Shown: positions 7,061 through 50,080 of the stretch, one piece after another
Layout: every line of letters begins with the position of its first letter
Position numbering within the stretch: the stretch's first letter is position 1
Source: Candidatus Parcubacteria bacterium
GTDB lineage: Bacteria > Patescibacteriota > Patescibacteriia > CAIXNZ01
Length of the DNA: 64,000 bases
Direction: 5' to 3'
Assembly: GCA_026395685.1 (NCBI GenBank)
Contig: JAPLYG010000018.1
Span: 288 to 64,287, forward strand
Program-made: the position numbers and the translations under genes
Notes under the pieces: model-generated
Databases searched by the model: none
Told to the model about the DNA's origin: nothing
Seen by the model: the letters and a program-made list of their open reading frames with translations, nothing else

Positions 7061-7215
7061 TCAAATAATCAATAAACAATAATCAATAAACAAACAAACT
7101 GTTTATAATTACTAATTTCTAAATTCTAAAATTTAGCATTTGAATTTGGGAATTTGATATTGTTTGATGATTGTTGCTTGATTATTGGTAATTTAATTTA
7201 AATTTTATACTTAAA
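7061..7215. repeat. AT-rich ~150-bp imperfect palindromic intergenic element, copy A (5' of fusA)
   Basis: Left arm aataatcaataaacaataatcaataaacaaac, centre ctaaattctaaaatttag, right arm tgtttgatgattgttgcttgattattgg. The arms are reverse complements of each other. Copies B, C and D are listed below. Confidence 0.7.
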
Positions 7216-7226
7216 ACTTTTTATTT

Positions 7227-9302
7227 ATGCCTCGTGAATATTCTCTAGACAAAACAAGAAATATAGGGATTATGGCCCACATTGACGCCGGTAAGACAAC
7301 TGTTACCGAGCGTGTTTTATTTTATACCGGTAAAAAGCATAAAATAGGAGAAGTTCATGAAGGCGCCGCTGAAATGGACTGGATGGAACAGGAAAAAGAA
7401 AGGGGTATTACCATTACTGCCGCTGCTACCACCTGTTTTTGGAAAGACAATCGCATTAATATTATTGATACTCCCGGCCATGTAGATTTTACAGTGGAAG
7501 TAGAAAGATCTTTACGCGTATTGGACGGCGCAGTTGCTGTTTTTGACGGCTCTCAGGGCGTAGAACCTCAGTCTGAAACTGTTTGGCACCAGGCTGCCAA
7601 ATATGATGTTCCTAGGATTGCTTTTGTTAATAAAATGGATAAAATGGGCGCAGATTTCTATATGACGCTGGATTCAATCGCGGAACGTTTATCCCTCAAC
7701 GCGGCTGCTATTCAACTGCCAATTGGTGCGGAAGAAACATTTAAAGGTTTAGTTGACTTATTAGACAGAAAAGCATTCTTATTTGAAGGCGAGTATGGCC
7801 AAAATATTAAAGAAATTCCAATCCCTGATGATATGAAAGAACAGGTGGAAAAATTTCGGAAAATTTTATTGGAAAAAGTAGCTGAAAATGATGAAGATTT
7901 AATGAATAAATATCTGGCTGGAGAAGAATTAGAAATTAGTCAGATTAAGCAGGTAATAAGAAAGGCTACAATCACTAATGATTTTCATCCGGTTTTATGC
8001 GGTTCAGCTTTAAAAAATATTGGCGTGCAGATGATGCTCGATGCTGTTGTTGCTTATTTGCCCTCGCCTTTAGATATTCCTCCGGTTAAAGGAAAAAATC
8101 CTGATACTGAAGCAGAGGAAATACGTAAAGCTTCTGACGATGAACCATTTGCCGCCTTAGCTTTCAAACTGGCAACTGATCCTTTTGTTGGTAAATTAGT
8201 TTTCTTTCGTGTATATTCCGGTAGTTTAAAAGCAGGTTCTTATGTCTTAAATGCCAAAACAGGCAGTAAAGAGCGAATCGGCCGTATTGTACGTCTGCAC
8301 GCTAATTCCCGCGAAGATGTTGATGAAGTTTTTTCCGGAGAAATCGCAGCTGCAATTGGTTTGAAAAATACTGTTACCGGTAATACTTTATGTGACGAGA
8401 AGGCGCCCATTATTTTGGAAGAAATTATTTTCCCGGAACCGGTCATTTCAGTGGCGATTGAACCAAAAACCAAGGTTGATCAGGAAAAGATGGGTATGGC
8501 AATGCAGAAATTGGCTGAAGAGGATCCTACTTTTAGAATCCATACTGACGAAGAAACTCTGCAGACAATTATTGAAGGCATGGGCGAATTACATCTTGAT
8601 ATTATTGTTGATCGCATGAAAAGGGAATTTAAAGTTGAAGCCAATGTCGGTGCGCCGCAAGTAGCTTATAAAGAAACAATTAAAGCAGCAGCTGAAGCTG
8701 AAGGAAAATATATTAAACAATCTGGCGGACGAGGACAATATGGCCATTGCTGGATTAAAGTTGAACCGAGAGAAAGAGGTGCAGGCTTTGAATTTGTTGA
8801 TGAAATTAAAGGCGGTCTCATCCCCCGGGAATTTATTCCTGCTATTGAGAAAGGCATAAAAGAATCATTAACCAAGGGTATTTTGGCAGGTTATCCGGTT
8901 GTCGATGTTAAGGCTATCGTTTTTGATGGTTCTTATCATGATGTCGATTCGTCTGAAGTAGCTTTCAAAATTGCAGGTTCAATGGCTTTTGTTGAAGCAG
9001 CAAAAAAAGCTAAGCCAGTTATTTTGGAACCGATAATGAAAATTCAGGTAATTACTCCGGAGCAATTCATGGGAGATGTCATCGGTGATTTGAATTCCAA
9101 ACGCGCCCAGATTTCTCAGATGACTGATAAGGTCAAATTGAAAGTGATTGATGGTCAAGTCCCATTATCTGAAATGTTTGGTTATGCTACTTCGTTGCGG
9201 TCATTGACACAGGGTCGCGCAAATTATGTAATGGAATTTTCTCATTATGCCGAAACCCCGAGCAATATAACCCAGAAAATTATTGAAGGGAAGAAAAAAT
9301 AG
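7227..9302 (+). CDS. fusA: Elongation factor G
   Basis: GTPase G1-G5 motifs ([21 protein letters not shown]) with full-length EF-G domains. Confidence 0.95.
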
Positions 9303-9340
9303 GAACCACGGATTTTGTTCACTGATAACACTGATATACG

Positions 9341-9371
9341 AAAACACGCCTAAGTAATTGGGCGTGTTTTT
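9341..9371 (+). terminator. Rho-independent terminator after fusA
   Basis: aaaacacgcc...ggcgtgtttt hairpin followed by a T-run. Confidence 0.75.
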
Positions 9372-9383
9372 GATGGGGGCTGA

Positions 9384-9412
9384 TTGACAATATCGGAACC
9401 ATTTGTTAAGTT
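9384..9412 (+). promoter_or_regulatory. Sigma70-like promoter (TTGACA-N17-TAAGTT)
   Basis: Canonical -35 hexamer, exact 17-nt spacer and an AT-rich -10. Sits upstream of the SD-bearing ORF at 9442. Confidence 0.45.
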
Positions 9413-9441
9413 AATATCAAAATTGAAAAGGAGGGACAAAA

Positions 9442-9825
9442 ATGTCCGAAAAACAAGTTTCTTTTTGGCAGACAGCGACAAATGTAGAAAAGATTATCAA
9501 TTCAATTTTAACTCTCATTCTGAATCTTAAAGGACAGCTCATCCCCAACCATCCGTCAGCGATCTATCTGGTTTTTCCTCCGAATGAGCCTAAAAAGGCA
9601 GATCTGTACTTTTCTCCGCAGGCCAAGCTTCAACAGGAGGCGGATATTCTTTTGAGAAGAATCGAGCTGCCGGAAGGCATTTTGATAAATGAGCTTTTAG
9701 GCCTAGCCTCAGTAAGGCTTAATCAACTGTTGCAAGTATACTACAGTCCTAGCAGAAGCATATATTTGCTGGAAACTGAATACCGTGAAGGCGGTCTGAT
9801 GATTAATATGATTAGGAAAGGTTAA
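9442..9825 (+). CDS. Hypothetical protein (island gene, strong SD)
   Basis: AAAGGAGGG lies 6 nt upstream of the ATG. I recognise no domain. It is followed by its own terminator at 9835..9864. Confidence 0.5.
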   Translation: MSEKQVSFWQTATNVEKIINSILTLILNLKGQLIPNHPSAIYLVFPPNEPKKADLYFSPQAKLQQEADILLRRIELPEGILINELLGLASVRLNQLLQVYYSPSRSIYLLETEYREGGLMINMIRKG

Positions 9826-9834
9826 TTGTTTTTC

Positions 9835-9864
9835 AACCACCCAAAAAGGGGTGGTTTTATTTAT
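9835..9864 (+). terminator. Rho-independent terminator
   Basis: aaccaccc-aaaaa-ggggtggtt hairpin followed by a T-run. Confidence 0.7.
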
Positions 9865-9987
9865 GGCCGCAATATTTTGTATTTTGTACTATGTGTATAA
9901 AAAGTGCATAAACCTCGGGATAATTATGTGTATAACTATGTGTATAAGCATGTTGAAAATTTGTTTATAATTAGCCTAGAAATGGCT

Positions 9988-10016
9988 TGACGCAATCTGT
10001 AAATAATTATACAATA
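9988..10016 (+). promoter_or_regulatory. Sigma70-like promoter (TTGACG-N17-TACAAT)
   Basis: Consensus-like hexamers with a 17-nt spacer. Drives the short unit that ends at the terminator 10144..10175. Confidence 0.5.
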
Positions 10017-10143
10017 CAATCACGAACCCTACTTGATTACTGAGTTAAGTATTTCTAATCTCAATTTTTTTGGGATTGGTATTTGGCTCAGTGTCCTAAG
10101 CGGGGTTTTTTGTTGGATAAAATTTTATGGAGGAGAACTTTAA

Positions 10144-10175
10144 AGGAAACACCACGCTGTTTCCTTTTTGTTTTG
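10144..10175 (+). terminator. Rho-independent terminator closing a ~150-nt unit that contains an SD plus a 23-codon ORF
   Basis: aggaaaca-ccacgc-tgtttcct hairpin followed by a T-run. Upstream, GGAGGAG-ATG 10127 opens the ORF MEENFKGNTTLFPFCFVHCRLGR. Confidence 0.55.
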
Positions 10176-10279
10176 TTCACTGTCGTTTAGGAAGGTAATT
10201 AGGATGCTTAAGAGTTTTAAGGGATATTGGCAGATTAACGCAGTAACCAGCCAAAGAAGTAGAAAGGGGGAAGTCTAAA

Positions 10280-11158
10280 ATGGTAGCGACCAAGCTCGTG
10301 ATGAATAATCAGATCCCCAGAGTTTTCAAAAACCTGGATCCTGAAACTCAGCAACTCGCGCAAGCGATTTGCGGCCACAAAGTCAACGGCATAAATGTGC
10401 ATCTGAAGCATTTGGCTGAAAACCTCAGACGTTCGGAAATGATTATTTGGGTGACCAAACGGCTCATTTCGGATGAGGCCCTTGGCGTCAACTGGGAGCA
10501 TTTGCTGGAGGATATTACTGAACAATGCCTCAAACCGTTCCACGAAGAAACCTACCGCCATCTTAAGCGTATGCACCAGATCGTGGCGGAACAGTTGAAA
10601 TTGCTGGAGCATCAAAAGCCTGAACAGCTGGATGACTTTGGCTGTGAAGACTTCCGTACTATGCATCATTTTGAACTGACTCCGGAAGATCAACAAAATC
10701 TGAAATGGGCTGCTGCTTTCCATGATTTGGGGCGTATGTGTTATCCAGTTTCTTTCTGGAATACGCCAGGTCGATTCAGCCAGAAACAGCGAGAGCAGCT
10801 TGAGTTCCATGCTCGGAATTTTTACTTCCTGGGAGAAATGCTTAATGTTTGCCAGGAGGTAATCGCCCTGTCAGTATTGCATCATTATCCCAATAAGGGC
10901 TATCCTGATAACGGTATTATTGCTAAGTTAAGGCCCTTTTTGGATCAGCCGAAATTTCAGTACATGCTGAAATGGCTGGTTACTAACGATGTTTACGGCG
11001 GTGCGACCGACAAGCGCAGTTACCGGGATCAAATCTGGACTCACGAACAAGTGATCCAGCAAACTATGCCTGTGGAAATGGCTCGCGTAGGCCTGGGTTG
11101 GGTGCCTTTTATTCAGGCGCTAAAACAATCCGGACAAAGAGTCGTTTGCCCAGCTTAA
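10280..11158 (+). CDS. Stand-alone HD-GYP-type phosphohydrolase (candidate cyclic-dinucleotide phosphodiesterase)
   Basis: Motifs AAAFHDLGR, PGRFSQKQREQLEFH, HHYPNKGYPDNG (HHExxDGxGYP-like) and NDVYGGATDKRSYRD. Preceded by AAAGGGGGAAG. Coding G+C is visibly higher than in fusA or tuf. Confidence 0.7.
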   Translation: MVATKLVMNNQIPRVFKNLDPETQQLAQAICGHKVNGINVHLKHLAENLRRSEMIIWVTKRLISDEALGVNWEHLLEDITEQCLKPFHEETYRHLKRMHQIVAEQLKLLEHQKPEQLDDFGCEDFRTMHHFELTPEDQQNLKWAAAFHDLGRMCYPVSFWNTPGRFSQKQREQLEFHARNFYFLGEMLNVCQEVIALSVLHHYPNKGYPDNGIIAKLRPFLDQPKFQYMLKWLVTNDVYGGATDKRSYRDQIWTHEQVIQQTMPVEMARVGLGWVPFIQALKQSGQRVVCPA

Positions 11159-11261
11159 CCCTTCAAAGGGCCCCCTTCTACTCAGCTCTATTGTTGGGAG
11201 GAGAGGGCCCTTGACTTTCTTTTCGATTTAAGTTAAGTTATATATAGTTTTTTAGAATTTT

Positions 11262-11325
11262 TGTCCGCCAGGGGCGGGTTCCCGCCATAGGCGGGCAGGC
11301 TGCCTTTGGCGGACAAACTTTTTTT
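11262..11325 (+). repeat. GC-rich palindromic unit, copy 2, acting as a terminator
   Basis: gtccgccaggggcgggttcccgccataggcgggcaggctgcctttggcggac followed by TTTTTTT. Confidence 0.7.
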
Positions 11326-11330
11326 ATTTT

Positions 11331-11642
11331 ATGATCAACTTGCAAAGAATTTTAGATCTTATACGCAAAACAGGGGATAAATATATTTTTGAAGATGAAA
11401 ATAATGGCATGTTTGTAGTTATGTCTTTGCCTGATTATGAAAATTATATTTTTAAAAATAATCAGCTGAAAGACTTATCAGAGGAAGAGCTTTTAAATAA
11501 AATAAATAAAGATATCGCCATCTGGAAAGCTACCCAGGAGGACAAAACATTGGCTGAAAACTGGCATGATTTGCCCCTGGAAGAAAAAAAATCATCAGAA
11601 GATGATCAATACTATTTTGAGCCTGTTGAGGATGAGGAATAA
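11331..11642 (+). CDS. Small acidic protein, possibly a Phd/YefM-like antitoxin fold (orphan)
   Basis: The N-terminus ...GMFVVMSLPDYENY resembles the Phd/YefM core, and the C-terminus is acidic. No toxin partner is adjacent. Native low GC, no SD. Confidence 0.3.
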   Translation: MINLQRILDLIRKTGDKYIFEDENNGMFVVMSLPDYENYIFKNNQLKDLSEEELLNKINKDIAIWKATQEDKTLAENWHDLPLEEKKSSEDDQYYFEPVEDEE

Positions 11643-11781
11643 AAAATACTTGCCAAGGCTTGAAATTGTGCTATAATTATAGACACATTAACCCAAATAT
11701 AATTATTAATTAAATTTAGTGGGCGGCTGGATAAAACTCTCCCGTTTTAGGGTCAGAGGCCGTTACCCAGGAGTTAAAACA

Positions 11782-12969
11782 ATGGCAGAAAAATACGAAC
11801 GTAAAAAGCCCCATGTTAACGTCGGTACAATCGGTCACGTTGACCATGGAAAAACCACGTTAACAGCTGCAATTTTAAATTATATTAACGCTATTGGCGG
11901 CAAAGCGCAGCAAAAAAGTGTTGCTCAGATTGATGCAGCCCCAGAAGAAAAAGAACGTGGTATTACTATTGCCACTGCTCACGTTGAATATGAAACTGAA
12001 AAAAGGCACTATGCCCACGTTGATTGCCCTGGCCATGCTGATTATATCAAAAATATGATTACTGGCGCGGCACAAATGGATGGCGCTATTTTGGTTGTAG
12101 CTGCGACAGATGGTCCGATGCCTCAAACTCGTGAACATATTTTATTAGCAAGACAGGTAGGCGTACCTTCAATTGTTGTATTCTTAAATAAGGTTGATCA
12201 GGTTTCTGATCCGGAACTGATAAGTTTAGTTGAAGAAGAAGTTCGTGAATTATTGAAAAAATATGAATATCCAGGTGATGAAACTCCTATTATCAGAGGC
12301 TCAGCTTTGAAGGCCTTGGAAAATCCTAAAGGAGAAGATGGCAAATGCATTCAACAGCTTTTAGATGCTTTGGATAGCTTTATTCCTGAACCAAAGAGAG
12401 AGATTGATAAGCCTTTCTTAATGCCGGTGGAAGATGTTTTCTCTATTGAAGGACGCGGTACTGTAGTTACTGGTAAAATTGAAAGAGGTAAAATCAAGGT
12501 TTCTGAAGAAATTGAAATTGTTGGTCTCAAACCCACTCAAAAAACAGTAGTTACTGGTATTGAAATGTTTAATAAATCATTAGATGAAGGTATGGCTGGT
12601 GACAATGCCGGCTTATTATTGAGAGGTACTAAAAAGGAAGATGTAGAAAGAGGCCAAGTTATTGCTAAGCCAGGATCAATTACGCCTCACACTGAATTTG
12701 AAGCAGAGGTTTATATTTTAACCAAAGAAGAAGGTGGCAGACATAAACCATTTTTTAAAGGATATAAACCGCAATTTTATATCAGAACAACTGACGTTAC
12801 GGGTGAAATTGAAATTTTAGGCGGCGCTGAAATGGTTATGCCGGGCGATACCATCCATTTAAAGGTAAAATTAATTGCTCCCGTTGCTTTGGAAGAAAAA
12901 GGTAAACTTGCCATTCGTGAAGGCGGCAAAACAGTTGGTGCTGGCGTGGTAGTTAAAATTATTGCTTAA
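11782..12969 (+). CDS. tuf: Elongation factor Tu
   Basis: [26 protein letters not shown]... The track ORF starts at an upstream in-frame GTG. ATG 11782 matches the EF-Tu N-terminus. Confidence 0.95.
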
Positions 12970-12981
12970 GTGAATAGGGTA

Positions 12982-13016
12982 AACCCCCGCCCCCAAAAAA
13001 GGGGCGGGGTTTTATT
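12982..13016 (+). terminator. Rho-independent terminator after tuf
   Basis: acccccgcccc-aaaaaa-ggggcggggt followed by a T-run. Confidence 0.8.
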
Positions 13017-13071
13017 CCCGAATAAAATTAAAAAATAGTTAAATAACCTAATTAAAATTAATTAATAGTTC

Positions 13072-13404
13072 ATGTCTAAGATGGAAAAGACAAAAGAAGA
13101 AAAACAGAAAATCAGAATTAAAATCCGGGCATACGATCATAAAATAATTGATCAGTCAGTCAGGACAATTATGGATACAGCAACCAGAACAGGAGCCCAA
13201 ATTTCAGGGCCCATTCCCTTGCCTGTTGAAAAGAAAAAGTACACAGTTTTAAGCTCTACATTTGTTCATAAAAATGCTCGTGACCAATATGAAATGCGCG
13301 TCCATAAGAGATTAGTGGATATTATTGAGCCAACACCGGCAACTATCGAAGCTTTGACGAATTTGAATTTGCCAGCCGGGGTTGATGTTGAAATAAAAAT
13401 GTAA
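13072..13404 (+). CDS. rpsJ: 30S ribosomal protein S10
   Basis: S10/NusE family similarity over the full length. Confidence 0.95.
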
Positions 13405-13731
13405 GCCTTGACAAGTAAACTGAATTTCGCTAAGCTTATACTAGGTTTAAAAATTTTTGATTTTTTGAAATTTTTAACTTTTTAGATGTAAAGAAAGCTT
13501 CCCTGATATAGGGAATAACCTTTATATTTAGCGAGTTAATTGAGGAGACATTAATTTCCAAATAAAAAATAAATCCAGAACATCTTTACTAATCAGGCTG
13601 CTTTTTTTAATTTTAATCTGGATTTGAGTACCAGATTTTTTATTTCTAAAAATTTTTAATTGGCAATAGGAAGGTTGAAATTAAGTGAAGATTATTTCAA
13701 GTTTCTAATTTCCAGTAAGATTAAATATATT

Positions 13732-14454
13732 ATGAAGTTTATCTTAGGTAAAAAAGTAGAAATGAGCCAAAAGTATAAAGAAGATGGGCGCGTAATTCCC
13801 GTAACTATTGTTAAGGCAGGGCCTTGTTTTATTAGTCAGGTAAAAAATAATGAAAAAGACGGTTATCAGTCAGTCCAGGTCGGCATTGAAGGTAAGAAAA
13901 AGTTAAATAAGGCATTAGGCGGTCATTTGAAGGGATTAAAAACCGCTCGTTGCTTGAAAGAATTTAGAGCGCAAAATGAAGAAGGATTTCAGAAAGGTCA
14001 GGAAATTACTGTCGCTGTTTTTACTCCGGGAGATAAAGTTACGGTCACTGCAAATTCTAAAGGACGAGGTTTTCAAGGGGTTGTCAAAAGACATCATTTT
14101 TCCGGCGCTCCTAAATCTCATGGTGATAAGGACCAATTAAGAAAGGGAGGCTCAATCGGCGCTCAGCGTCCACAAAGAGTTTTAAAAAATAAGAGAATGC
14201 CGGGTCATATGGGCGATGAGCAGGTAAGTGTTAAAAATTTAGAAGTAATTGAAATTGATGAGAAAAATAATTTAATTTATATTAAAGGAGCTATCCCAGG
14301 AAGCCGCAATGCTTTGGTAAAAATCGTAGCTGAGGGTGATATGAAATTGGCTTCTGCAGCAGTTGCAAATAAGGAAACCCCTGCAGTTGAAGTTCAAGCT
14401 CCGGAGAATAAAGATAACAAAGAACAAGTTGAAGAAATTGTCGAAAATAAATAA
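13732..14454 (+). CDS. rplC: 50S ribosomal protein L3 (with Lys/Glu-rich C-terminal tail)
   Basis: MKFILGKKVEMSQ...; the start was moved to ATG 13732 to match the L3 N-terminus. The C-terminal extension runs ...ETPAVEVQAPENKDNKEQVEEIVENK. Confidence 0.9.
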   Translation: MKFILGKKVEMSQKYKEDGRVIPVTIVKAGPCFISQVKNNEKDGYQSVQVGIEGKKKLNKALGGHLKGLKTARCLKEFRAQNEEGFQKGQEITVAVFTPGDKVTVTANSKGRGFQGVVKRHHFSGAPKSHGDKDQLRKGGSIGAQRPQRVLKNKRMPGHMGDEQVSVKNLEVIEIDEKNNLIYIKGAIPGSRNALVKIVAEGDMKLASAAVANKETPAVEVQAPENKDNKEQVEEIVENK

Positions 14455-14471
14455 TTCTAGATGCTATTTTT

Positions 14472-15107: not shown

Positions 15108-15111
15108 TAAT

Positions 15112-27876: not shown

Positions 27877-27879
27877 TAT

Positions 27880-28016
27880 AATTTAAAGTTCAAAGTTTAA
27901 AATTAAAAATTACAGTTAGTAGTTTAAAATTTCGGAAGATTTATTATAAAAAATAATACATTAACTTTGAATTTCAATCTGTAACTTTGCACTTTGCATT
28001 TTGAACTTTTAACTAT
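27880..28016. repeat. AT-rich caaagt/aactttg repeat block (family 2)
   Basis: gttcaaagtttaaaatt...aactttgaatttcaat...aactttgcactttgcattttgaactttt. Related to 37093..37140 (tcaaagtttaaagtgcaaagtt). Confidence 0.55.
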
Positions 28017-33089: not shown

Positions 33090-33298
33090 TAATCACCAAA
33101 AGCCGTTTGACCCTACTAACAGTAGGGGAGGCACGGGAAGAAACCATTTGGGAGTAGAACCCGTCGTAAACCTGCGTTAAGGGTAAATTAAGAGGCTCTC
33201 CTCGGAGGGAATCAAGGTGGTACCGCGAAGAAAAAACTTCGTCCTTGAATCTATCAGTATTTGGTTTTTTGATAGGTTTAGAGACGAAGTTTTTTTAA
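33090..33298 (+). promoter_or_regulatory. T-box riboswitch leader of aspS
   Basis: AATCAAGGTGGTACCGCGAAG matches the T-box core AAUUAGGGUGGNACCGCG. It is followed by the terminator aacttcgtc...gacgaagtt plus T7 (33236..33298). Confidence 0.6.
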
Positions 33299-33299
33299 T

Positions 33300-33430
33300 A
33301 ACCAATCATCAATAATCAAAATCCAAACAATATCTAAATTATAATAACTAATATTCAAACCGTTTAGTGATTAGGAATTGGTTATTTGTATTTGTTTGAT
33401 GATTGAGACTTGATGATTGATTATTAATCA
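33300..33430. repeat. AT-rich imperfect palindromic intergenic element, copy B (between the T-box terminator and the aspS ATG)
   Basis: caatcatcaataatcaaaatccaaacaa ... ctaaattataa ... ttgtttgatgattgagacttgatgattgattatt. Confidence 0.65.
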
Positions 33431-35347: not shown

Positions 35348-35653
35348 ATGAAACTTTCTGGCTTACAGAAATACATAATTTTGCAATGTTTTGACTCCAA
35401 AAACAAGCTTGATCGCAAGGTTTTGCTGGGCTTTTACGGTTCTAATAAGAAGAATCCTAGCAAAGAGATAATGGTTAATTCCATTACTAATAGTATTGAA
35501 CGATTAATCAAAAAGGGGTTGATTGTGGGGTTTGGAGAGATTACTAAGGAGAAAGTTTATATCAATAAAATAAGATTAACTAGGGCGGGACAAGTATTGG
35601 CGAAGAAGGCGCTGGGGGAACAAAGACACCTGCCCTTTAAGGCTAAATTTTAA
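35348..35653 (+). CDS. Hypothetical protein
   Basis: ORF with no recognised motif. Possibly a small DNA-binding protein. Confidence 0.4.
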   Translation: MKLSGLQKYIILQCFDSKNKLDRKVLLGFYGSNKKNPSKEIMVNSITNSIERLIKKGLIVGFGEITKEKVYINKIRLTRAGQVLAKKALGEQRHLPFKAKF

Positions 35654-35751
35654 ATTTAAAATTTTAATTGTAGGAATATTATTTAAAAATTTAAACATTA
35701 AAAATTGATTTAAAATTAAAAATTATAAATTTAAAATTAATTAGAAATCCT

Positions 35752-40778: not shown

Positions 40779-40780
40779 AG

Positions 40781-40854: not shown

Positions 40855-40936
40855 ATAATAAACTCATAACTCAGAGTTTTTAACTTAAAACTTAGGCAGT
40901 TTTAAATTATTAGTTTTGAGATTTGAGTTGTTAATG

Positions 40937-42210: not shown

Positions 42211-42227
42211 CTTTTAATTTATATTTT

Positions 42228-43088: not shown

Positions 43089-43112
43089 TGTTTTTATAAT
43101 AGCATATAAATA

Positions 43113-43150
43113 ATCCCGCCTTATAAGGCAGGATTATTTTTTTAGAAATT
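43113..43150. terminator. Bidirectional terminator between parB and rel
   Basis: aataatcctgcc-ttataa-ggcaggattatt followed by T7. Confidence 0.75.
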
Positions 43151-44600
43151 TTTCGATTAATGTTCTTTTGGCGAGAGCGCTTTTAATTTTATTTTTCGCT
43201 ACGCTCGTTTTAACAAATTTTAGCCAGTCAGCACTTGGGTTTTTGCGATTTTTATCAGTTATGATCTCAATCACATCGCCGCTTTTTAAGGGCGAGTTCA
43301 GGCTGGCAATATGATTATTAATTAAAGCCCCCGTGCATTGCGCACCGATATCAGTATGTACATAGTAGGCGAAATCTATAGGGGTGGCTCCTTTGGGCAA
43401 GTCAATAACATCTCCTTTGGGAGTGAAAACAAAAATTCGGTCATTAAAGACATCGATCTTTAAATTTTCTAAATATTTTTCGTTTTCGGATAATTCTTTT
43501 TGCCATTTAGTCAGTTCATCTATCCATTTTATTTTCTTGGAGGGTATTAATGATCCTTTTTCATCATAATGCCAGTGGGCAGCAATGCCATATTCAGCTT
43601 CCTCTTCCATTTCCTTAGTTCTGATTTGAATCTCAATTATTTCGCCATCAACCGTAAAGACCGTAGTATGCAAAGAAGAATAGCCATTTGGCTTGGGTTG
43701 AGCAATATAATCCTTAATGCGCCCTTTAAGAGGTTTCATCTTTTTATGGATAATTCCCAAGACAGCATAGCAGGTAGGAATATCTTGTACAATAATACGA
43801 ATGGCGACAAAATCATAGACGCGGTTAATGTCTTTGTCATGTTCAAGCAATTTGGCATAAAGGCTGTATAATTGCTTGACGCGTCCTTTGACTTCCAGAT
43901 ATTCAATCCCTTCTTCTTTCAGCTCTTTTTTTACAAAAGCGATTATTTCATCTAAATATATTTCTTTGGTTTTAAGTTGTTTTTCTACCAAGCCTTTTAG
44001 CCAGTTGTATTCTTTAGGATATAAGTATTTGAAGGATTCTTCTTCTAATTTACCTTTCATTTCATACATGCCGAGTCGATTGGCAATTGGCGCATAAATT
44101 TCCAGAACTTCAGAGGCAATGCGAATCTGTTTATCTCGAGGCAAAGCATATAAGGTCTTTAAATTATGATACCGGTCGGCGAATTTTATGAGGATTACCC
44201 TGGTATCTTTGGCCATGGCCACAAACATTTTGCGTAAATTTTCAATATATCGTTCAATGCCGCGGTATTTGATGTTTCCTAATTTTGTAATGCCTTCAAC
44301 TAGCGTAGCAACTTCTTCTCCAAAATTTTTCGTAATATCTTCTAACGTATATTTTGTATCTTCCGGCACGTCATGCAAAAGGCCGGCTATGATAATATTA
44401 GGGCTTAATTTCATGTCCGCCAGCATTTGAGCAGTTGCTAACGGATGATGAATATAATCTTCACCTGTCAGTCTCTTTTGGCCGTCATGAGCCTGCTTGG
44501 CAAAAAGAAAAGCCAGCTCAATAAGCCCTAAATCAGCTTTGGGATTGTATTCTTTGATGGTTTTTAATAGGTGTTGTATTTTTTTCTCAAGTTCAGGCAT
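43134..44600 (-). CDS. rel: RelA/SpoT-family (p)ppGpp synthetase/hydrolase, short form (HD + synthetase + TGS, no ACT)
   Basis: HD motif (HHPLA...HDVPED), synthetase domain, and a TGS block (DRIFVFTPKGDVIDLPKGATPIDFAYYVHTDIG). Confidence 0.85.
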   Translation of the reverse strand: MPELEKKIQHLLKTIKEYNPKADLGLIELAFLFAKQAHDGQKRLTGEDYIHHPLATAQMLADMKLSPNIIIAGLLHDVPEDTKYTLEDITKNFGEEVATLVEGITKLGNIKYRGIERYIENLRKMFVAMAKDTRVILIKFADRYHNLKTLYALPRDKQIRIASEVLEIYAPIANRLGMYEMKGKLEEESFKYLYPKEYNWLKGLVEKQLKTKEIYLDEIIAFVKKELKEEGIEYLEVKGRVKQLYSLYAKLLEHDKDINRVYDFVAIRIIVQDIPTCYAVLGIIHKKMKPLKGRIKDYIAQPKPNGYSSLHTTVFTVDGEIIEIQIRTKEMEEEAEYGIAAHWHYDEKGSLIPSKKIKWIDELTKWQKELSENEKYLENLKIDVFNDRIFVFTPKGDVIDLPKGATPIDFAYYVHTDIGAQCTGALINNHIASLNSPLKSGDVIEIITDKNRKNPSADWLKFVKTSVAKNKIKSALAKRTLIEKFLKK

Positions 44601-44665
44601 ATATTAGGAGTATAACTTAAAATTAGCTAAAAATAAAGGGAATTTCCACAATTTGGGTCAAACCC

Positions 44666-44694
44666 TTGACATTTTTCTTTAGATATGCTAAAAT
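44666..44694 (+). promoter_or_regulatory. Strong sigma70-like promoter TTGACA-N17-TAAAAT
   Basis: Consensus -35 hexamer, exact 17-nt spacer, TAAAAT -10. No + strand CDS lies downstream. Confidence 0.55.
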
Positions 44695-44700
44695 ACGTGT

Positions 44701-44935
44701 AGGATGTAAGGGGATAACCCTATTACAAGCAAAATGTCCGCGGCGCAAGCCGGGGATATTTTGTTTAAAAAAGGCGATTTTTCCTCTTGACAAAACTGTT
44801 AAAATATGATAACTTTATAATGATGGGAAGTAGCGGCCCTTACATCCACATTGTAATTGGGGCTTTAGCTATTTTTCCCATCACTAAAAAATCCCCCCGC
44901 ATTGCGGGAAGGGATTTTTTAGTTAAATGGAGATA
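44701..44935 (+). ncRNA. Candidate structured ncRNA (~230 nt) of unknown class
   Basis: It starts ~7 nt after the -10 hexamer. The 5' GGATGTAAGGG (44702-44712) can pair with CCCTTACATCC (44837-44847). It ends in the bidirectional terminator atcccccgcattgcgggaagggat plus T6 (44896..44935). Confidence 0.35.
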
Positions 44936-44939
44936 TAAA

Positions 44940-47075
44940 TTACTCAGTTTGGGGAGGGTCCTCAGTTTTGGGACGTTCCCAGGTAGCATAGTCGCAATCC
45001 GGATAACGGTTGCAGGCATAAAATATCTTGCCTCTTTTGCTCTTCTTAATGACTACATCGCCCTGATTGCATTTGGGGCATTTCAGTCCCAATGATTTTT
45101 GTATTGGCTTGGTAAATTTGCATTCGGGATATTTGGAACAGGCGAGGAATTTTCCAAACCGTCCTGTTTTGATCAGTAATTTGGCATTGCACTTGGGGCA
45201 GGTTTCATTCGTTTCCAAAGCGGCATGCTCTTCATCTGTTACCATCATTGATTGGATATTTTTACATTCAGGATAATTTGAGCACGCTAAAAATTTACCA
45301 AAGCGACCCATTTTAACTATCATTGGGGAGCCGCATTTATCACATTTGAGGTCAGTTTTTTCTTCAGTCAAATCTTTCTTATTAATTTCCTTATCTTTTA
45401 TTTTTAAATTGGCTTCAAACGGTTCGTAGAATTCCCTGATTACCGGCTGCCATTTCATTTTGCCTGCGGCGATCTCATCAAATTCCTCCTCCATTTTAGC
45501 TGTAAAGTTTAGGTCTACAATTTTCGGAAAATGTTCGACCAGAAGGTCAGTTACCAGCATACCGATTTCAGTCGGCGTCAGTTTTTTCTCATCATTTTTC
45601 TTTACATAATTTCTATCCTGGATGGTAGACAGAGTAGGCGCATAAGTGGACGGTCTGCCAATTCCATATTCTTCCAAAGCCTTGATTAAAGTTGCTTCTG
45701 AATATCTGGCTGGCGGCTGGGTAAAATGCTGCAGTTTCCTTAATTCAATTAAATTCGGTTCATCGCCTTCTTTCAATTCCGGCAAGATATTTTCTTTAAT
45801 ACTGGTTTTATAGACCTTCAAAAATCCGTCAAATTTGATGGTTGATCCAGTCGCGCGAAAAGTATAATCATTAGCTTTAATATCAACTTTGGTTTGATCA
45901 ATAATTGCCGGATTAATTTGACTAGCCAGCGTTCTTTGCCAGATTAATTTATACAGTTTTAATTGTTTGGGCTCCAAATAATTGGCAATAGCATCAGGGG
46001 AATGATTTACATCTGTTGGTCTGATAGCTTCATGGGCTTCCTGTGCGCCTTTGGATTTTGTTTTATAGATGTTAGCTTTTGCCGGCAAATACTCGGCACC
46101 TATTTGATTTTTGATATAAGCGCGGATATTATCCAAAGAAAAAGTAGAGAGGTTTAAAGAGTCTGTTCTCATATAAGTGATTAAACCGACAGAACCCTCC
46201 GACCCCAATTCAATACCTTCATAAAGCTGCTGGGCTAACATCATTGTCTGTTTTGCTGAATAGCCGAGTTTTTTGCCGGCTTCTTGCTGTAAGGTACTGG
46301 TGGTAAAAGGAGTCGGCGCTTGGCGTAAAGATTCTTTTCGTTCAATTTTTTCAACCTCATATTTGGCCCCGTTTAATTCAGCTAAAATTTTCTTGGCTTC
46401 TTCCTCATTTTTAATAGCCATTTTATCCAGAGACTTACCTTTGACCTGAGCCAGCTGGGCAATGAAGTTCTGCTCATCTTTTTGCAGTTCAGCTTCCAGT
46501 GACCAGTATTCCTCCTGTTTAAATTTTTGTATCTCTCGTTCACGGTCAACAATCAGGCGCACAGCTACTGACTGTACGCGTCCGGCGCTCAAACCGCGGG
46601 CAACCTTTTTCCAGAGCAGGGGAGAAAGCTTGTAGCCGACTAGCCTATCTAATATTCTGCGTGCCTGCTGGGCATCAATTAAATTGTAGTCCAAGTCGCG
46701 GGGATTTTTTAAGGCCTCTTCAATCGCATTTTTGGTAATTTCATGAAAAACAATTCTTTCTGTTTTTTTGTCATGCAAATTTAGAGACTCCACCAAATGC
46801 CAGGCAATGGCTTCACCTTCGCGGTCTTCGTCAGTTGCGAGAATAATTAAATTTGCTGAAGAAGCAAGCTTTTTAAGTTTATCGACTTGTTTTTGGGCTT
46901 TAGCCGGTATTTCGTAGTCAGGTTTAAAATTATTTTTAATATCAACGCCCAACTTTTTTTGCGGCAAATCGCGGATATGACCAAAAGAAGACTCCACCTT
47001 GAAGTCTTTGTTTAAGAATTTAGTTATTGTTTTGGCCTTGGTCGGTGATTCGACGATGACTAGTGATTTTGCCAT
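44940..47075 (-). CDS. topA: DNA topoisomerase I with C-terminal zinc ribbons
   Basis: Toprim and Topo IA domains plus four C4 zinc-ribbon repeats. Confidence 0.95.
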   Translation of the reverse strand: MAKSLVIVESPTKAKTITKFLNKDFKVESSFGHIRDLPQKKLGVDIKNNFKPDYEIPAKAQKQVDKLKKLASSANLIILATDEDREGEAIAWHLVESLNLHDKKTERIVFHEITKNAIEEALKNPRDLDYNLIDAQQARRILDRLVGYKLSPLLWKKVARGLSAGRVQSVAVRLIVDREREIQKFKQEEYWSLEAELQKDEQNFIAQLAQVKGKSLDKMAIKNEEEAKKILAELNGAKYEVEKIERKESLRQAPTPFTTSTLQQEAGKKLGYSAKQTMMLAQQLYEGIELGSEGSVGLITYMRTDSLNLSTFSLDNIRAYIKNQIGAEYLPAKANIYKTKSKGAQEAHEAIRPTDVNHSPDAIANYLEPKQLKLYKLIWQRTLASQINPAIIDQTKVDIKANDYTFRATGSTIKFDGFLKVYKTSIKENILPELKEGDEPNLIELRKLQHFTQPPARYSEATLIKALEEYGIGRPSTYAPTLSTIQDRNYVKKNDEKKLTPTEIGMLVTDLLVEHFPKIVDLNFTAKMEEEFDEIAAGKMKWQPVIREFYEPFEANLKIKDKEINKKDLTEEKTDLKCDKCGSPMIVKMGRFGKFLACSNYPECKNIQSMMVTDEEHAALETNETCPKCNAKLLIKTGRFGKFLACSKYPECKFTKPIQKSLGLKCPKCNQGDVVIKKSKRGKIFYACNRYPDCDYATWERPKTEDPPQTE

Positions 47076-47204
47076 TTGGATAAGTTATAGGATTTATAGG
47101 AAGAATAGGTAGTAGAGGAAAATAGAATAAGATGATCACAGTCCTCTAATCATCTTCTTCATCTACTTCTTCTAATTCCTCTTTTAATTAATACCAGATT
47201 TTTT

Positions 47205-47370
47205 ACTGATTGTCAAATTCGGGTTTTCGAACCCTTCATTGTTAATAATCAATAACCAATAACACAATCATCAAACAATTCCTAATAACTAAATCTAAAT
47301 ACTAAAATTAGTTATTAGAATTTAAATATTTTTTATTGTTTGATGTTTGATTATTGATGTTTGGTGATTT
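47205..47370. repeat. AT-rich imperfect palindromic intergenic element, copy C (topA leader)
   Basis: aataatcaataaccaataacacaatcatcaaacaa ... ctaaatctaaatactaaaattag ... ttgtttgatgtttgattattgatgtttgg. A minus-strand TTGACA-N17-TATTAAT promoter lies at about 47196..47224. Confidence 0.65.
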
Positions 47371-48498
47371 TTATAGAAGTATATAGTTTTGTCCTCCTAA
47401 ATTCTTAATCATACCCTTCATCTCCATTAGGCTTAAACAGCCGGAAACTAAAGAAGCAGTCAATTTTGTCGATTTTATAATATCATCAATATGTTTCGGT
47501 TCATGATTAAGGTTTTTATATATTAATTTTTCTTCAGTTGTTTGGGGCAGCACCAGCTGGTTGGATATATAACTTTTAACCTCATTAAGATTTAGTTCTT
47601 CCAAAATTTCCTGATAGTTAGTTATTAATTTGGCACCTTTTTGAATTAATTTATTCGTGCCGATAGAATTCTCATTATAAATTGAGCCTGGGACGGCGAA
47701 TACTTCGCGGTTTTGTTCCAAAGCTATATAGGCGGTAATTAATGCCCCGGATGTTTCAGCCGCTTCAATTACTAAGGTTCCTAAACTTAAACCGGAAATT
47801 ATGCGATTGCGGATCGGGAAGTTATGCTTAAGCGGCAACATGCCAATGGGAAACTCCGATATGATAGTGCCATCATGCTCTAAAATGTTTTTAGCTATAT
47901 AGCGGTTTGAAGAAGGATAAATACTGGTGGTATCTAAGCCGCTGCCTAAAACTGCGATTGTTTTTCCCTGAACATCTACTGCGCTCTGATGGGCTAAGGC
48001 ATCCACGCCAATTGCCAATCCGCTGACAATTGTGAAGCCATTTTGGGCTAAAGGCTTTACCAGTTTCGGCGTTATCTGTTTGCCATAGTTGGAAATTTTT
48101 CTGGTGCCCACAACAGCCAGATTATAGCGGCAGTTAAAATTCTTGATATTTCCTTTGATATATAATAAGGCAGGTGGATTAAAAATTTCTTTAAGCAACT
48201 CTGGATAGTCTTCATCTTTAACCGTAAGCGCGTTAATGCCTTCAGTTTGAATTTTTTCCATTTCAGTATCGGGATCAATTTGTTCTTTAGTTAAATAAAA
48301 CTCCCTGGCAATGTTTTCCTCCAGGCCGCTTTTTTGCAATTCTAAAAGATCGGCTTCCCAGGCAGCTTTCATATCAGGGAAGTGATTATAAAGTTTTTTA
48401 AACCTGTTTGCGCCGATTTTGGCAAACTGGCTGATGGCGATCCAGTATTTTAGATCATTGTTCATTGTTTTTATTTCCTTTTTGCGTTTATTAGGCAA
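47371..48498 (-). CDS. dprA: DNA processing protein DprA (Smf)
   Basis: Rossmann-fold DprA core (GxAxGxDxxAH) with the conserved dprA-topA synteny. Confidence 0.85.
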   Translation of the reverse strand: MPNKRKKEIKTMNNDLKYWIAISQFAKIGANRFKKLYNHFPDMKAAWEADLLELQKSGLEENIAREFYLTKEQIDPDTEMEKIQTEGINALTVKDEDYPELLKEIFNPPALLYIKGNIKNFNCRYNLAVVGTRKISNYGKQITPKLVKPLAQNGFTIVSGLAIGVDALAHQSAVDVQGKTIAVLGSGLDTTSIYPSSNRYIAKNILEHDGTIISEFPIGMLPLKHNFPIRNRIISGLSLGTLVIEAAETSGALITAYIALEQNREVFAVPGSIYNENSIGTNKLIQKGAKLITNYQEILEELNLNEVKSYISNQLVLPQTTEEKLIYKNLNHEPKHIDDIIKSTKLTASLVSGCLSLMEMKGMIKNLGGQNYILL

Positions 48499-48668
48499 TT
48501 GGTGTTTAAATGATTAATAACAAATTTTTAATTTTTAGTGAATGAAATAATGATTTAATGTCTAAATTCAGACATTACAAACTTAGTCATTGAATAAAAA
48601 TTATAAATTAAAAATTAATAATTAAAGAAATGGTGCTTTTTTGTATATTATCACATAAACTTTAGTCT

Positions 48669-48697
48669 TGACAAAAGGTCATTTTTTTGATATGCTG
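48669..48697 (+). promoter_or_regulatory. Promoter TTGACA-N17-TATGCT driving a ~235-nt leader
   Basis: Consensus -35 hexamer with a 17-nt spacer. The leader contains a long-range CCAGCG/CGCTGG pairing and a GAGAGUAGC motif. Confidence 0.45.
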
Positions 48698-48935
48698 GAG
48701 AATAATAAAAAATTAGTAGATTAGTAGCCAATTAGTATTCAGACTTCTATCTGCCAGCGCGAAATCAAAAGGGACCCTCCTCCTGATTAGAGAGTAGCTA
48801 AGTTAGGGTATTAGCCTTGTGCGAATTATTCTACGCTGGCGGGTAGTATTCTTGATAGTAATGGCAAGGGGGCTTTGAGTCTGGTATTAAGAGCCTTTTG
48901 CATAAAATCAAACCAAAGCGCAAGGAGGATTGATC

Positions 48936-49145
48936 ATGAATTGTCCGTTAATGAAAGGTGATCAAATAAAGATGTGTGGGGCTTTCCAATGCAGACTAGT
49001 TTTGTCCCCGGAGGAATTGAAGGAAGTCTGTTCCAACGACAGTTGGAGGAACTGCAGCTTTTATTTAAAGCACCAGCAACAGGGGCAACAGTTGCCGATT
49101 CATGAACACTATGACCACTATGATAAACGGCCGCCTCTGTGTTAG
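48936..49145 (+). CDS. Cys/His-rich small protein (putative metal-binding) with a strong SD
   Basis: MNCPLMKGDQIKMCGAFQCRLVLSPEELKEVCSNDSWRNCSFYLKHQQQGQQLPIHEHYDHYDKRPPLC. GCAAGGAGGATTGATC-ATG. Higher local G+C. Confidence 0.5.
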   Translation: MNCPLMKGDQIKMCGAFQCRLVLSPEELKEVCSNDSWRNCSFYLKHQQQGQQLPIHEHYDHYDKRPPLC

Positions 49146-49312
49146 AGCGGAGCTGCTTTAGCTCCCGCCTACGCTCATCCTTCACTTCGCTACGGAGGGC
49201 TTCGGCGGGCAGGCGACCCTTGTCTGCCCCGCCAAAAAAATCATGCGGTTTGTCGTAAGACAGCCGCTTTTATTTTTGGGAAATAAAAAATCCGCTCATT
49301 TTTTTAAAAAAT

Positions 49313-49340
49313 GTAGGGAACGCAGATCTGCGTTCCCTAC
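49313..49340. repeat. 28-nt perfect palindrome gtagggaacgcagatctgcgttccctac, copy 2
   Basis: See 35245..35272. Confidence 0.85.
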
Positions 49341-49366
49341 AAATATAAATTATTTGAGCGGATTTT

Positions 49367-49939
49367 TTAATTGAATTTATTTTGAACTTTATTTAGAGGT
49401 TCCCCGTTAATTAGGAGATTAAGCGCCTCGAGTATCTGAGGAATTGAATTTTTTATAATTTTTTTGTCAGCGGGAGTGAAGTTTTGCAGGACAAATTTGT
49501 CAGCCGGCATTTTTTCGCGGAGGGAATTGGCCACGCCGACGCGAATGCGGATAAAACCTTTACTGCCCAGTTCTTTAATAATTGACTCTACGCCATTATT
49601 GCCGCCGGAACTTGCGTCTTGGGAAATTCTGATTTTGCCGAGTGCTAAATCAATATCATCATGAACTACGATTATATTTTCCAGCTTGATTTTGAAAAAA
49701 GTCTTAATAGTTTTGACTGCCTGGCCAGAATTGTTCATAAAAGTTTGGGGCTTAGCCAGGATAAAATTAGCGCCTTTCGCAATTTCGGCTTTAAATTTTT
49801 TTTCCAATTTAAATGTCGGTACAACACCGAATAAATTCGGTATTACCCGAGCAGCATCTAAGGCTTGAAAGCCAATGTTATGGCGGTTATTTTTGTATTC
49901 TTGGCCGGGGTTGCCCAGACCGACTATTAATTTAGTCAT
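49367..49939 (-). CDS. pth: Peptidyl-tRNA hydrolase
   Basis: MTKLIVGLGNPG...HNIGF Pth signature. Confidence 0.9.
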   Translation of the reverse strand: MTKLIVGLGNPGQEYKNNRHNIGFQALDAARVIPNLFGVVPTFKLEKKFKAEIAKGANFILAKPQTFMNNSGQAVKTIKTFFKIKLENIIVVHDDIDLALGKIRISQDASSGGNNGVESIIKELGSKGFIRIRVGVANSLREKMPADKFVLQNFTPADKKIIKNSIPQILEALNLLINGEPLNKVQNKFN

Positions 49940-49944
49940 ATTTT

Positions 49945-50080
49945 TTTAAAAATCCTCAATAATCAAGTGCCAATAATCAAGCAATATCAAATAAATAAAT
50001 CCTAAATTCTAAACCTTTGGTAATTATATTTTTAAATTTAGAATTTGTTGGATGATTGATTATGGTGTATTGATTATTAA
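49945..50080. repeat. AT-rich imperfect palindromic intergenic element, copy D (pth leader)
   Basis: ctcaataatcaagtgccaataatcaagcaatatcaa ... ctaaattctaaa ... ttgttggatgattgattatggtgtattgattatt. Confidence 0.65.

Follow-up and report, generated by a model that had tools for sequence, protein, structure and literature searches.

Four related AT-rich imperfect palindromes, here called c1 to c4, occupy intergenic spacers in a 64-kb stretch of a Candidatus Parcubacteria contig (JAPLYG010000018.1), which is referred to below as the window. Among lineages with a name, Magasanik-, Uhr-, Buchanan-, and Falkowbacteria are its closest relatives. Each copy was about 130-135 bp long as delimited by its nhmmer envelope, and the GC content of the copies was about 17-20%. 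Copy c1 (7061-7196) follows the rpsG stop codon (7059) and precedes the fusA ATG (7227). Its left arm (about 7061-7100) is made of CAA-N4 heptads, followed by inner yAA heptads and the centre, and its right arm (about 7145-7196) of N4-TTG heptads; Tandem Repeats Finder (TRF) reported periods of 7/14 at 7064-7093 and 7160-7187, and the rpsG-fusA spacer showed a lag-7 z of 6.0. Copy c2 (33295-33428) is flanked by the terminator hairpin of a T-box-like leader and by the aspS ATG (33440). Copy c3 (47241-47370) directly follows the stop of dprA (47371-48498, minus strand), and c4 (49950-50081) fills the spacer from the stop of a lipid kinase gene (50082, minus strand) to the pth ATG (49939). NCBIfam assignments of the neighbours were S7 and EF-G around c1, AspRS after c2, DprA before c3 with TopA further on, and YegS-type lipid kinase and Pth around c4, in line with the genes fusA, aspS, topA, and pth named in a reading of this DNA made from sequence only (the sequence-only reading).

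The relationship among the four copies, also proposed in that reading, was confirmed by profile searches. When each copy was omitted in turn, a profile of the remaining three recovered it in the 64 kb with E of 3.5e-16 to 6.4e-13, and the next-best match had E of about 0.01-0.1. The profile built from all four copies matched the four sites only (next E=0.045); scores were 88-102 bits on the better strand and 50-65 bits on its complement, and the orientation in gene sense was about 13 bits better for three of the four. Thus, the copies align far better than expected by chance, at pairwise identities of 63-71%, and many further copies were found beyond the window, as described below. The motif CAATAATCAA with at most one mismatch occurred 32 times in the window compared with 13.9 +/- 3.7 in shuffled sequence, and these occurrences were concentrated in the four copies. 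On either strand, each of the four copies folded better than its dinucleotide-shuffled versions (z -3.0 to -6.0). None of the elements matched an Rfam family.

The surroundings of c2 and c3 were examined more closely. Upstream of c2, RF00230 matched the plus strand at 33097-33249 with 58.2 bits (E 3.7e-12), which is below the gathering score of 93, yet significant, and the terminator hairpin of this T-box-like leader occupies 33231-33295 on the same strand; c2 therefore lies between the T-box terminator and the start codon of aspS, as proposed. The picture at topA was different from that proposed, in which the repeat spanned 47205-47370 and overlapped the topA promoter. Those coordinates take in unrelated sequence, and the promoter-like TTGACA-N17-TATTAA(T) (47187-47216, minus strand) falls outside the heptad element. 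In the sense direction, c3 is followed by a GC hairpin, GGGTTCGAAAACCC (47221-47234, minus strand), which separates it from topA, and then by this promoter. A simple promoter consensus scan misses the latter since position 6 of its -10 hexamer is A, and the sequence is kept in two relatives (L244 and L245), both of which have no c3 there. Hence, c3 is a 3' appendage of dprA rather than a topA leader. Likewise, c1, c3, and c4 begin 0-1 nt past the stop codon of the upstream gene, so that the placement is not specific to 5' leaders as had been supposed. Between the promoter and topA, a purine-rich and then pyrimidine-rich inverted repeat, AAGATGATTAGAGGACTgTGATCATCTT ... TCCTCT..., is common to the topA 5' untranslated region (UTR) of the window (47076-47186, minus strand) and to L246 (1-106); judged by its sequence, this is probably a separate conserved leader structure downstream of the promoter.

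Alignment of the four copies with MAFFT, in both orientations, revealed a feature absent from the earlier description, namely a 7-nt periodicity of the whole element. Invariant columns recurred every seven positions, as AA or CAA in the left half and as TT or TTG in the right half. The apparent palindrome is two convergent heptad arrays, (CAA-N4)n ... (N4-TTG)n, that enclose a centre whose length is free. The anatomy was derived from 63 non-redundant members, whose consensus is ttAATAAcCAATaAcCAAtAAtCAAaaacCAAACAATatccAAttTttAATatccAATaaccAAAcat | TTtgataTTggaatTTggTTATTgGatATTGTTTGaTtaTTGgtacTTGaTTATTGaTTATTaat. In these members, the CAA (left) and TTG (right) cores stand at exact 7-column steps with 94-100% conservation, and each array comprises about nine heptads. 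The left arm is ordered as (CAA-N4)x4-5, a junction CAAACAAT, and (yAA-N4)x4, with CAA at alignment columns 9, 16, 23, and 30 and yAA at columns 34-63 in steps of seven; the right arm mirrors this order with TTG and TTr cores. The junction (CAAACAAT on the left, ATTGTTTG on the right) moves the heptad phase by 4, and the inner heptads retain only yAA/TTr. The 4-nt spacers between cores are degenerate and drawn from a restricted vocabulary (TAAT 15%, TAAC 13%, ATTC 8%); they are poor in G, which is nearly excluded from the CAA strand. The commonest units are CAATAAT and CAATAAC, which correspond to AATCAAT when the register is shifted.

The outer arms are the best-conserved portion of the element. 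At the level of the consensus, 50 of 66 mirrored columns are complementary. In contrast to the fixed step within an arm, the separation of the inner modules ranged from 23 to 66 nt with all mod-7 residues represented, indicating that the arms are independent arrays around a free centre. This rules out a continuous protein filament that would run in fixed register through the centre. The unit of length change was also the heptad: deletions relative to the profile had a modal length of 7 nt (15 of 51), and one orthologous pair differed by a 7-nt indel.

We then searched for the family outside the window. A first scan of genome contigs with the permissive pattern AATAATCAA-N{80,105}-TTGATTATT gave chance matches from all phyla; among the matches listed, the true members were L010 and L013, in which the modules run AATAATCAA ... 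CAAACAAT ... ATTGTTTG ... TTGATTATT with spacings of 4, 11, or 18 nt. These two contigs have 46-50% GC, yet the element stays AT-rich in them. The records (CAZGNX010000021.1 and CAZIOU010000003.1) are labelled 'uncultured Pseudomonadales' and 'uncultured Gammaproteobacteria' in ENA. Their genes are of Patescibacteria type, with Candidatus Komeilibacteria as the best named homologue (82% identity), and L013 is Komeilibacteria-like; the record labels thus appear wrong. With a more specific pattern applied to metagenome contigs, at least 83 elements in at least 78 contigs fitted the full profile at E<1e-4 among the 120 stretches listed. As a negative control, the same pattern gave 10 matches in 2.9 million viral contigs, all of them in coding sequence and none fitting the profile. 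These results show that the family is a dispersed intergenic repeat of about 130 bp in Patescibacteria of the Magasanik-/Uhr-/Falkow-/Komeilibacteria neighbourhood. No description of such elements in Patescibacteria was found in the literature.

All 83 of these metagenomic elements (among the matches listed) were intergenic. Neighbouring open reading frames (ORFs) were called crudely as the longest ORFs, several of which were checked against Pfam; on this basis, the 54 elements with two called neighbours comprised 41 between co-directional, 8 between convergent, and 5 between divergent genes (76/15/9%). The nearest stop codon was at a median distance of 7 nt, and 56% of the elements lay within +/-15 nt of one, whereas the distance to the start codon was looser, exceeding 100 nt in 30%. 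Of two further expectations of the sequence-only reading, a constant orientation relative to the gene was contradicted by the 41 elements between co-directional genes, 13 of which had the same orientation as the genes and 28 the opposite one, and the implied link to translation-type genes dissolved in the larger sample. The 82 flanking proteins of the 63 members were ordinary housekeeping proteins of many kinds, a diversity that does not support an association with translation genes, and included no transposase, integrase, or recurrent partner. A role as promoter, with the TTG cores serving as serial -35 boxes, was also rejected, since no consistent -10 partner was found, a riboswitch terminator lies upstream of c2, and divergent genes flank only 9% of the elements.

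Subsequently, the fate of individual copies was followed among relatives. The relative on JGI contig Ga0376277_0001566 (L001, L123, L244) shares synteny with the window, and the nucleotide identity between them is 70-88%. Its copy at aspS (L123a, 9857-9989 of L123) was identical to c2 at 124 of 133 positions (93%) with no indel, whereas the adjacent aspS four-fold sites were 57% identical and the T-box leader 83%. Three further orthologous pairs from metagenomes gave the same result, with element against flanks at 93% vs 72%, 89% vs 75-78%, and 100% vs 94-95%, and all substitutions between orthologous copies were confined to the spacers or the centre. Two more genomes (L257 and L258) are equally distant from the window by aspS four-fold sites (50-62%). 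The aspS site of L257 carries a copy only 73% identical to c2, which is the level of a paralogue, and that of L258 has no element, with a short direct TATAATC array instead. The other three copies of the window were missing from the relative, whose rpsG-fusA, lipid kinase-pth, and dprA-topA spacers contain unrelated heptad arrays in place of c1, c4, and c3; for c4, the absence concerns the orthologous lipid kinase-pth spacer of L244. Conversely, the ruvX-recO spacer of L123 holds a member (L123b, 3142-3275) whose arms are about 95% identical to those of c3 at a different locus, with differing centres, and the ruvX-recO spacer of the window contains an unrelated heptad array of the same size. 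Related genomes therefore carry the family at non-orthologous positions, and one orthologous site displays presence, replacement, and absence. The sequence of retained copies is thus strongly constrained, while the family as a whole gains, replaces, and loses members.

The aspS leader itself is a mosaic. The T-box terminator hairpin is identical in L123 (9785-9856) and L257 and different in the window (33225-33295), and the adjoining element is near-identical in the window and L123 and different in L257. This arrangement points to recombination or replacement, the breakpoint lying at the edge of the element.

Next, we examined whether base pairing is under selection. One alternative is a transcribed hairpin, in which the element would be a long imperfect mRNA stem-loop at cistron boundaries or 3' ends, with possible roles as an RNase III-type processing site, a 3' stabiliser resembling repetitive extragenic palindromes (REPs), or an attenuator. 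Several properties agree with it: all copies fold better than shuffles, the minimum free energy (MFE) ranges from -17 to -47 kcal/mol over the 63 members, the polarity is strictly convergent with mirrored module order and a free loop length, and the elements touch stop codons and occur also between convergent genes, as 3'-end hairpins do. The complementarity of an arm to the opposite arm of its own element was nevertheless no greater than that to arms of other elements (32.4 vs 34.6), and the same applied to the inner and outer parts. Mirrored variable columns were complementary in 37.7% vs 36.6% expected from column composition (permutation p=0.19). In the 32 elements between co-directional genes, read in gene sense, mismatches of G·U type (104) and C·A type (105) were equally frequent, and the sense and antisense strands each had the better MFE in 17 elements (Wilcoxon p=0.63). 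The missing covariation, the equality of G·U and C·A, and the equal folding of both strands all argue against a selected hairpin in the sense RNA.

A residual signal was found when the spacer order of the right arm was permuted with the cores fixed. The MFE became worse in 78% of the elements (mean z -0.61, p 1.4e-6), showing that the real order is slightly more complementary than a permuted one; the size of this effect was about 3 of 33 kcal/mol, and about 90% of the folding stability came from the cores and composition. The substitutions between orthologues were ambiguous in this respect: those from c2 to L123a keep or improve folding (p about 0.02-0.06), whereas those between L136 and L216 cost the sense strand 12 kcal/mol of stability and improve the antisense strand. 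The repetitive vocabulary would permit several pairing registers and could thereby mask covariation, and an inverted partner accompanies 57% of heptad arms irrespective of unit type (see below). On the other side, a hairpin leaves the invariant CAA cores and the conserved spacers of non-complementary arms unexplained. The canonical GC hairpins with T-runs that adjoin c2 and c3 indicate that the element is not a terminator, and an intrinsic terminator was rejected on this ground. A structured cis-regulatory RNA or leader hairpin was likewise rejected, as there is no compensatory or wobble maintenance on the transcribed strand. We conclude that a hairpin in the sense RNA is not the feature that selection maintains and that the palindrome follows from the polarity of the arrays and the vocabulary they share; a transcribed hairpin as the explanation of the family is accordingly regarded as unlikely. 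Among the three natures offered by the sequence-only reading, RNA leader hairpins are thus the least supported, given also the copies between convergent genes, whereas MITE-like mobile elements (miniature inverted-repeat transposable elements) and binding arrays both stand and are mutually compatible.

The transcript could also be read without being paired. In this explanation, a protein that is oligomeric or has an OB fold would bind (CAA-N4)n, (N4-UUG)n, or both as single-stranded RNA and recognise one triplet in every 7 nt, and binding would toggle the arms between paired and open states, tuning translation in a genome nearly devoid of Shine-Dalgarno (SD) sequences. Such triplet readers are familiar: HutP reads UAG-N4 and TRAP reads GAG-N2-3, cold-shock proteins bind one heptamer each, and S1 acts on CAA-rich G-less enhancers. 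An invariant triplet with free 4-nt spacers and no covariation is the signature of such sites, and the period of 7 is that of HutP. The CAA strand of the element is free of G, either strand reads 5'-CAA array ... UUG array-3' so that independence of orientation would be expected, and only about 8 of the 62 genes in the window have an SD-like motif, mostly in the pyr operon at 29.5-33 kb. Ribosomal-protein and other window genes start after plain AT-rich leaders. HutP and TRAP sites are single-copy, gene-specific leader sites in fixed orientation, unlike the strand-symmetric elements described here, which occur in every gene arrangement, and to our knowledge proteins of the HutP/TRAP family are not known in Patescibacteria. 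The distribution fits poorly in other respects, too: elements between convergent genes have no start codon downstream, c3 is located upstream of the promoter of topA, conservation is equal in the two arms whatever the gene direction, the distance to the start codon is loose, L258 lacks the element in its aspS leader with no obvious consequence, and the same genomes contain other heptad cores. Consequently, although heptamer repeats before SD-less genes of Beggiatoaceae have been proposed as sites for Csp, S1, or CsrA (PMC4679880), we consider an RNA triplet array quite improbable here.

Heptad periodicity is not restricted to the family. In the window, 10 of 36 spacers of at least 60 nt had a significant lag-7 signal, compared with 1 of 348 coding windows, and six of these ten are non-family spacers with units such as AACTTTG, AATTTTA, and AACTnnn. 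Inverted arrays detected by lag-7 or TRF include one with a different unit (right arm AACTTTn) in the rpsL-rpsG spacer (6497-6588; lag-7 z=3.2, TRF), yAA-AGTT ... AACT-TTG filling the ruvX-recO spacer (27877-28016; lag-7 z=7.1), an AT-only array of AATTTTA / TTAAAAT units (35645-35740; lag-7, TRF), AACTnnn ... AGTTTTG between tRNA-Met and tRNA-Leu (40855-40935; lag-7 z=4.7), and one upstream of dprA (48506-48626; TRF). In 945 kb of sampled Patescibacteria contigs, 155 strong heptad arms of dozens of unit types were counted; among the 148 whose flanking sequence sufficed for the test, 57% had an inverted partner within 170 nt and 15% a direct one. Other cores in the same genomes include CG-N5, AAAGTT, and AAATCCG.

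Some of these arrays were inspected individually. In the dprA-topA spacer of L244 (9830-9990), five or six CGAAGTC-type heptads lie upstream and four TTTCGTA-type heptads downstream of the kept topA promoter TTGACA-N17-TATTAAT, so that the arms of a heptad palindrome bracket a promoter there. The topA 5' UTR of L245 has the reverse polarity, TTG-type and then CAA-type. In L001, similar ACGATTC/CGAATnn heptad palindromes at 1002-1120 and 6238-6307 each adjoin a copy of tRNA-Pro and constitute a second, CG-cored heptad family in this relative. L002 (9632-10000), a relative with 86% EF-G identity, has an extra 115-aa ORF between rpsG and fusA, followed by three exact TTCATAA heptads just ahead of the fusA start; its rpsL-rpsG spacer measures 18 nt vs 92 nt in the window.

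The abundance of unrelated units raises a further alternative, in which heptamer slippage and fold-back template switching build periodic quasi-palindromes in AT-rich spacers and the 'family' is a functionless convergence on an easy vocabulary. The many unrelated heptad units in the same genomes, the indels in 7-nt units, the fast turnover between close relatives, and the short direct TATAATC array at the aspS site of L258 are all consistent with such a mutational by-product. Among long simple repeats of prokaryotes, heptanucleotides are the commonest. Their over-representation, reported by Mrazek et al. 2007 according to the summary in PMC4679880, fits as well. This alternative does not account for retained copies far more conserved than their flanks and four-fold sites, for cores 94-100% invariant over the 63 members, for a module order, junction CAAACAAT, and arm types that recur across loci and genomes of 38-50% GC, or for an element that is AT-rich even in the GC-richer genomes. 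A functionless origin of the family is therefore judged improbable.

We tentatively favour a repeat of the REP/MITE kind, with arms that a protein reads on the DNA in steps of 7 bp, while regarding this as possible rather than established. Such a repeat may serve the host, for instance as an insulator, roadblock, or nucleoid site, or may be purely selfish. This preference rests on the strand symmetry, the invariant cores, the absent covariation, the conservation at the sequence level, and the turnover. Selection would act on the heptad arrays as double-stranded DNA, on their sequence and their polarity, rather than on a base-paired RNA. The arms would serve as recognition arrays, on which the putative protein binds one unit per 7 bp and oligomerises along the array, and a trans-acting factor of this kind would keep the arms constant while the copies turn over, as in REP/REPIN/MITE-type repeats. 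Transposases, which attach to the subterminal repeats found at either end of a non-autonomous element, offer an analogue for such an array reader.

REP/BIME, REPIN, and MITEs (Correia, ERIC) are short, non-coding, intergenic palindromic repeats, often just past stop codons; they are multi-copy, turn over between relatives, can be long-lived, and are recognised by RAYT, IHF, or gyrase. The Patescibacteria repeat is similarly short, palindromic, intergenic, multi-copy, often just past stop codons, and turning over between relatives. REPs are stem-loops of 20-40 nt that are rich in GC, bear a GTAG or CGTC tag, and have a RAYT (Y1 transposase) gene linked to them; their doublets form REPIN. Membership in REP/REPIN proper was rejected, since the present element has about 17-20% GC, no GTAG/CGTC tag, and a heptad array as its unit; no RAYT gene was noticed among the flanking loci examined. 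In MITEs, the terminal inverted repeats are well delimited, the target site is duplicated, and the copies are highly identical. The mirror-image arms provide the terminal inverted repeats, and both presence/absence polymorphism and copies at non-orthologous sites were observed, whereas an autonomous IS or transposase sharing the ends was not. Neither the 82 flanking proteins nor the window ORFs examined included a transposase, which is weak evidence as the sample is only about 1 Mb. Heptad periodicity is no feature of the REP/REPIN/MITE families.

Several observations weigh against the preferred repeat read by a 7-bp-step protein. Neither a target-site duplication nor a clean empty site could be defined: the element ends, TTAATAA...TTATTAA, are themselves palindromic, so that an independent duplication is not separable, and L258 offers no clean empty site. 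An actively transposing MITE would be expected to show a within-genome identity above the 63-71% seen here. The 64 kb and about 1 Mb of related contigs examined yielded no candidate for the binding protein and no transposase, and the metagenomic sample was ascertained with a pattern derived from the family itself. The spacer-order effect, although weak, shows some mirror symmetry beyond the cores. The many heptad cores per genome are hard to fit to one sequence-specific protein and point to a generic process. Finally, omega-type sites, which are compared below, tolerate mixed heptad orientation, whereas the polarity here is strictly convergent.

Among known heptamer arrays, the convergent (GGGAATC)n/(GGGANTN)n arrays of Xanthomonas stand closest as a precedent. 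According to Rehm et al. 2015 (PMC4692102), these number about 185 per genome, are about 90% intergenic, form two convergent arrays on opposite strands in 70-75 cases, lie nearer to the end of the upstream ORF, and are not placed at the same genes in two related species; about 65-70% are between co-directional genes (either strand), 16% between convergent, and 7-8% between divergent ones. The Patescibacteria element likewise has a heptamer unit in which a conserved core is combined with variable positions, and two or more such units follow in tandem; it also resembles them in context (76/15/9%), in the median of 7 nt to a stop codon, and in its non-orthologous placement. On the other hand, the Xanthomonas unit is G-rich and has been studied as a G-quadruplex former, whereas the CAA-N4 unit is AT-rich and cannot form a G-quadruplex; furthermore, the arms and junction module make a defined element of about 130 bp with a consensus common to several genera. 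The hosts are unrelated, Xanthomonas being Gammaproteobacteria. Other heptamer repeats are the STRR of cyanobacteria and the TAACTGA of Beggiatoaceae, cyanobacteria, and Bacteroidetes (MacGregor 2015, PMC4679880). These intergenic arrays often stand immediately upstream of the start codons of SD-less genes, ribosomal protein operons included, and the phylogenetic distribution of STRR and TAACTGA repeats is patchy (PMC4679880). They are mostly direct arrays of one exact heptamer (in BOGUAY, 1 indirect among 170 sets), unlike the two-armed element with its degenerate vocabulary.

A protein that reads heptads on DNA is exemplified by omega (ParB_pSM) of pSM19035, a ribbon-helix-helix (RHH) protein that binds WATCACW heptads, 7-10 contiguous per site in direct and inverted orientation, with one dimer per heptad and at least four contiguous units required (PMC9499535). 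At least four contiguous, gapless 7-bp repeats are also present in the Patescibacteria element, and its unit in the shifted register, AATCAAT, is one or two positions apart from the omega AATCACT/A. The units do not match fully, since the C at position 6 of WATCACW is absent from the commonest Patescibacteria units. Omega sites are plasmid promoters or centromeres next to the omega gene and mixed in orientation, unlike the chromosomal, dispersed elements of about 18 units with degenerate spacers. No cognate omega-like or RHH gene was found nearby: neither the 10 small window ORFs nor the flanking proteins gave an RHH Pfam match.

Other known systems were compared and rejected. TIGR-Tas arrays consist of 36-nt tandem units with box C/D-like motifs and a Nop-domain Tas gene, whereas the present elements are single, have 7-nt units, and neighbour housekeeping genes. 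Integron attC sites, which form serial arrays of cassettes beside intI, do not fit, as the copies are isolated between housekeeping genes and their termini do not conform to RYYYAAC/GTTRRRY. The IHF consensus and DnaA/parS motifs were judged by eye not to fit.

Two further observations concern other parts of the window. Right after the pth stop, a 92-nt near-perfect spacerless palindrome (49281-49372), AAAAAATCCGCTCA...TAGGGAACGCAGA|TCTGCGTTCCCTA...TGAGCGGATTTTTT, has the look of an intrinsic terminator that is nested and bidirectional; it does not belong to the heptad family. The last approximately 5 kb (58900-64000) contain no ORF longer than 102 aa on either strand, with a GC content of 42-50%, above that of the AT-rich spacers, and positive GC skew. 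This region gave no Rfam match at E<=0.01 and no Pfam match for ten short ORFs, and nothing in it was recognisable as rRNA. A large non-coding RNA, decay of the region, or a fault of the assembly could each account for it.

Of the non-coding DNA of candidate-phyla-radiation bacteria, next to nothing is known. The element described here is now recognisable and searchable by a consensus, a signature at the level of a hidden Markov model, and an exact-match pattern; it is abundant in environmental Patescibacteria, and its retained copies are better conserved than the neighbouring genes. It can also mislead gene callers and the annotation of riboswitches and leaders, as it occupies the interval between the T-box terminator and aspS. 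The invariant trinucleotide per 7 bp in facing arrays points to a putative reader with a 7-bp step, and connects these genomes with Xanthomonas, cyanobacteria, and Beggiatoaceae, whose heptamer arrays are likewise unexplained, which suggests a general phenomenon. In its boldest form, which we offer as speculation and think unlikely as it stands, ABY1 Patescibacteria would possess chromosome-wide landing pads of about 130 bp coated by a putative small omega/ParG-like protein that polymerises at a 7-bp step. If this is true, the landing pads would be a new nucleoid, insulator, or roadblock system marking gene ends, the heptad arrays with other cores would be diverged or competing versions of it, and it would operate in genomes with few classical regulators and almost no SD sites.

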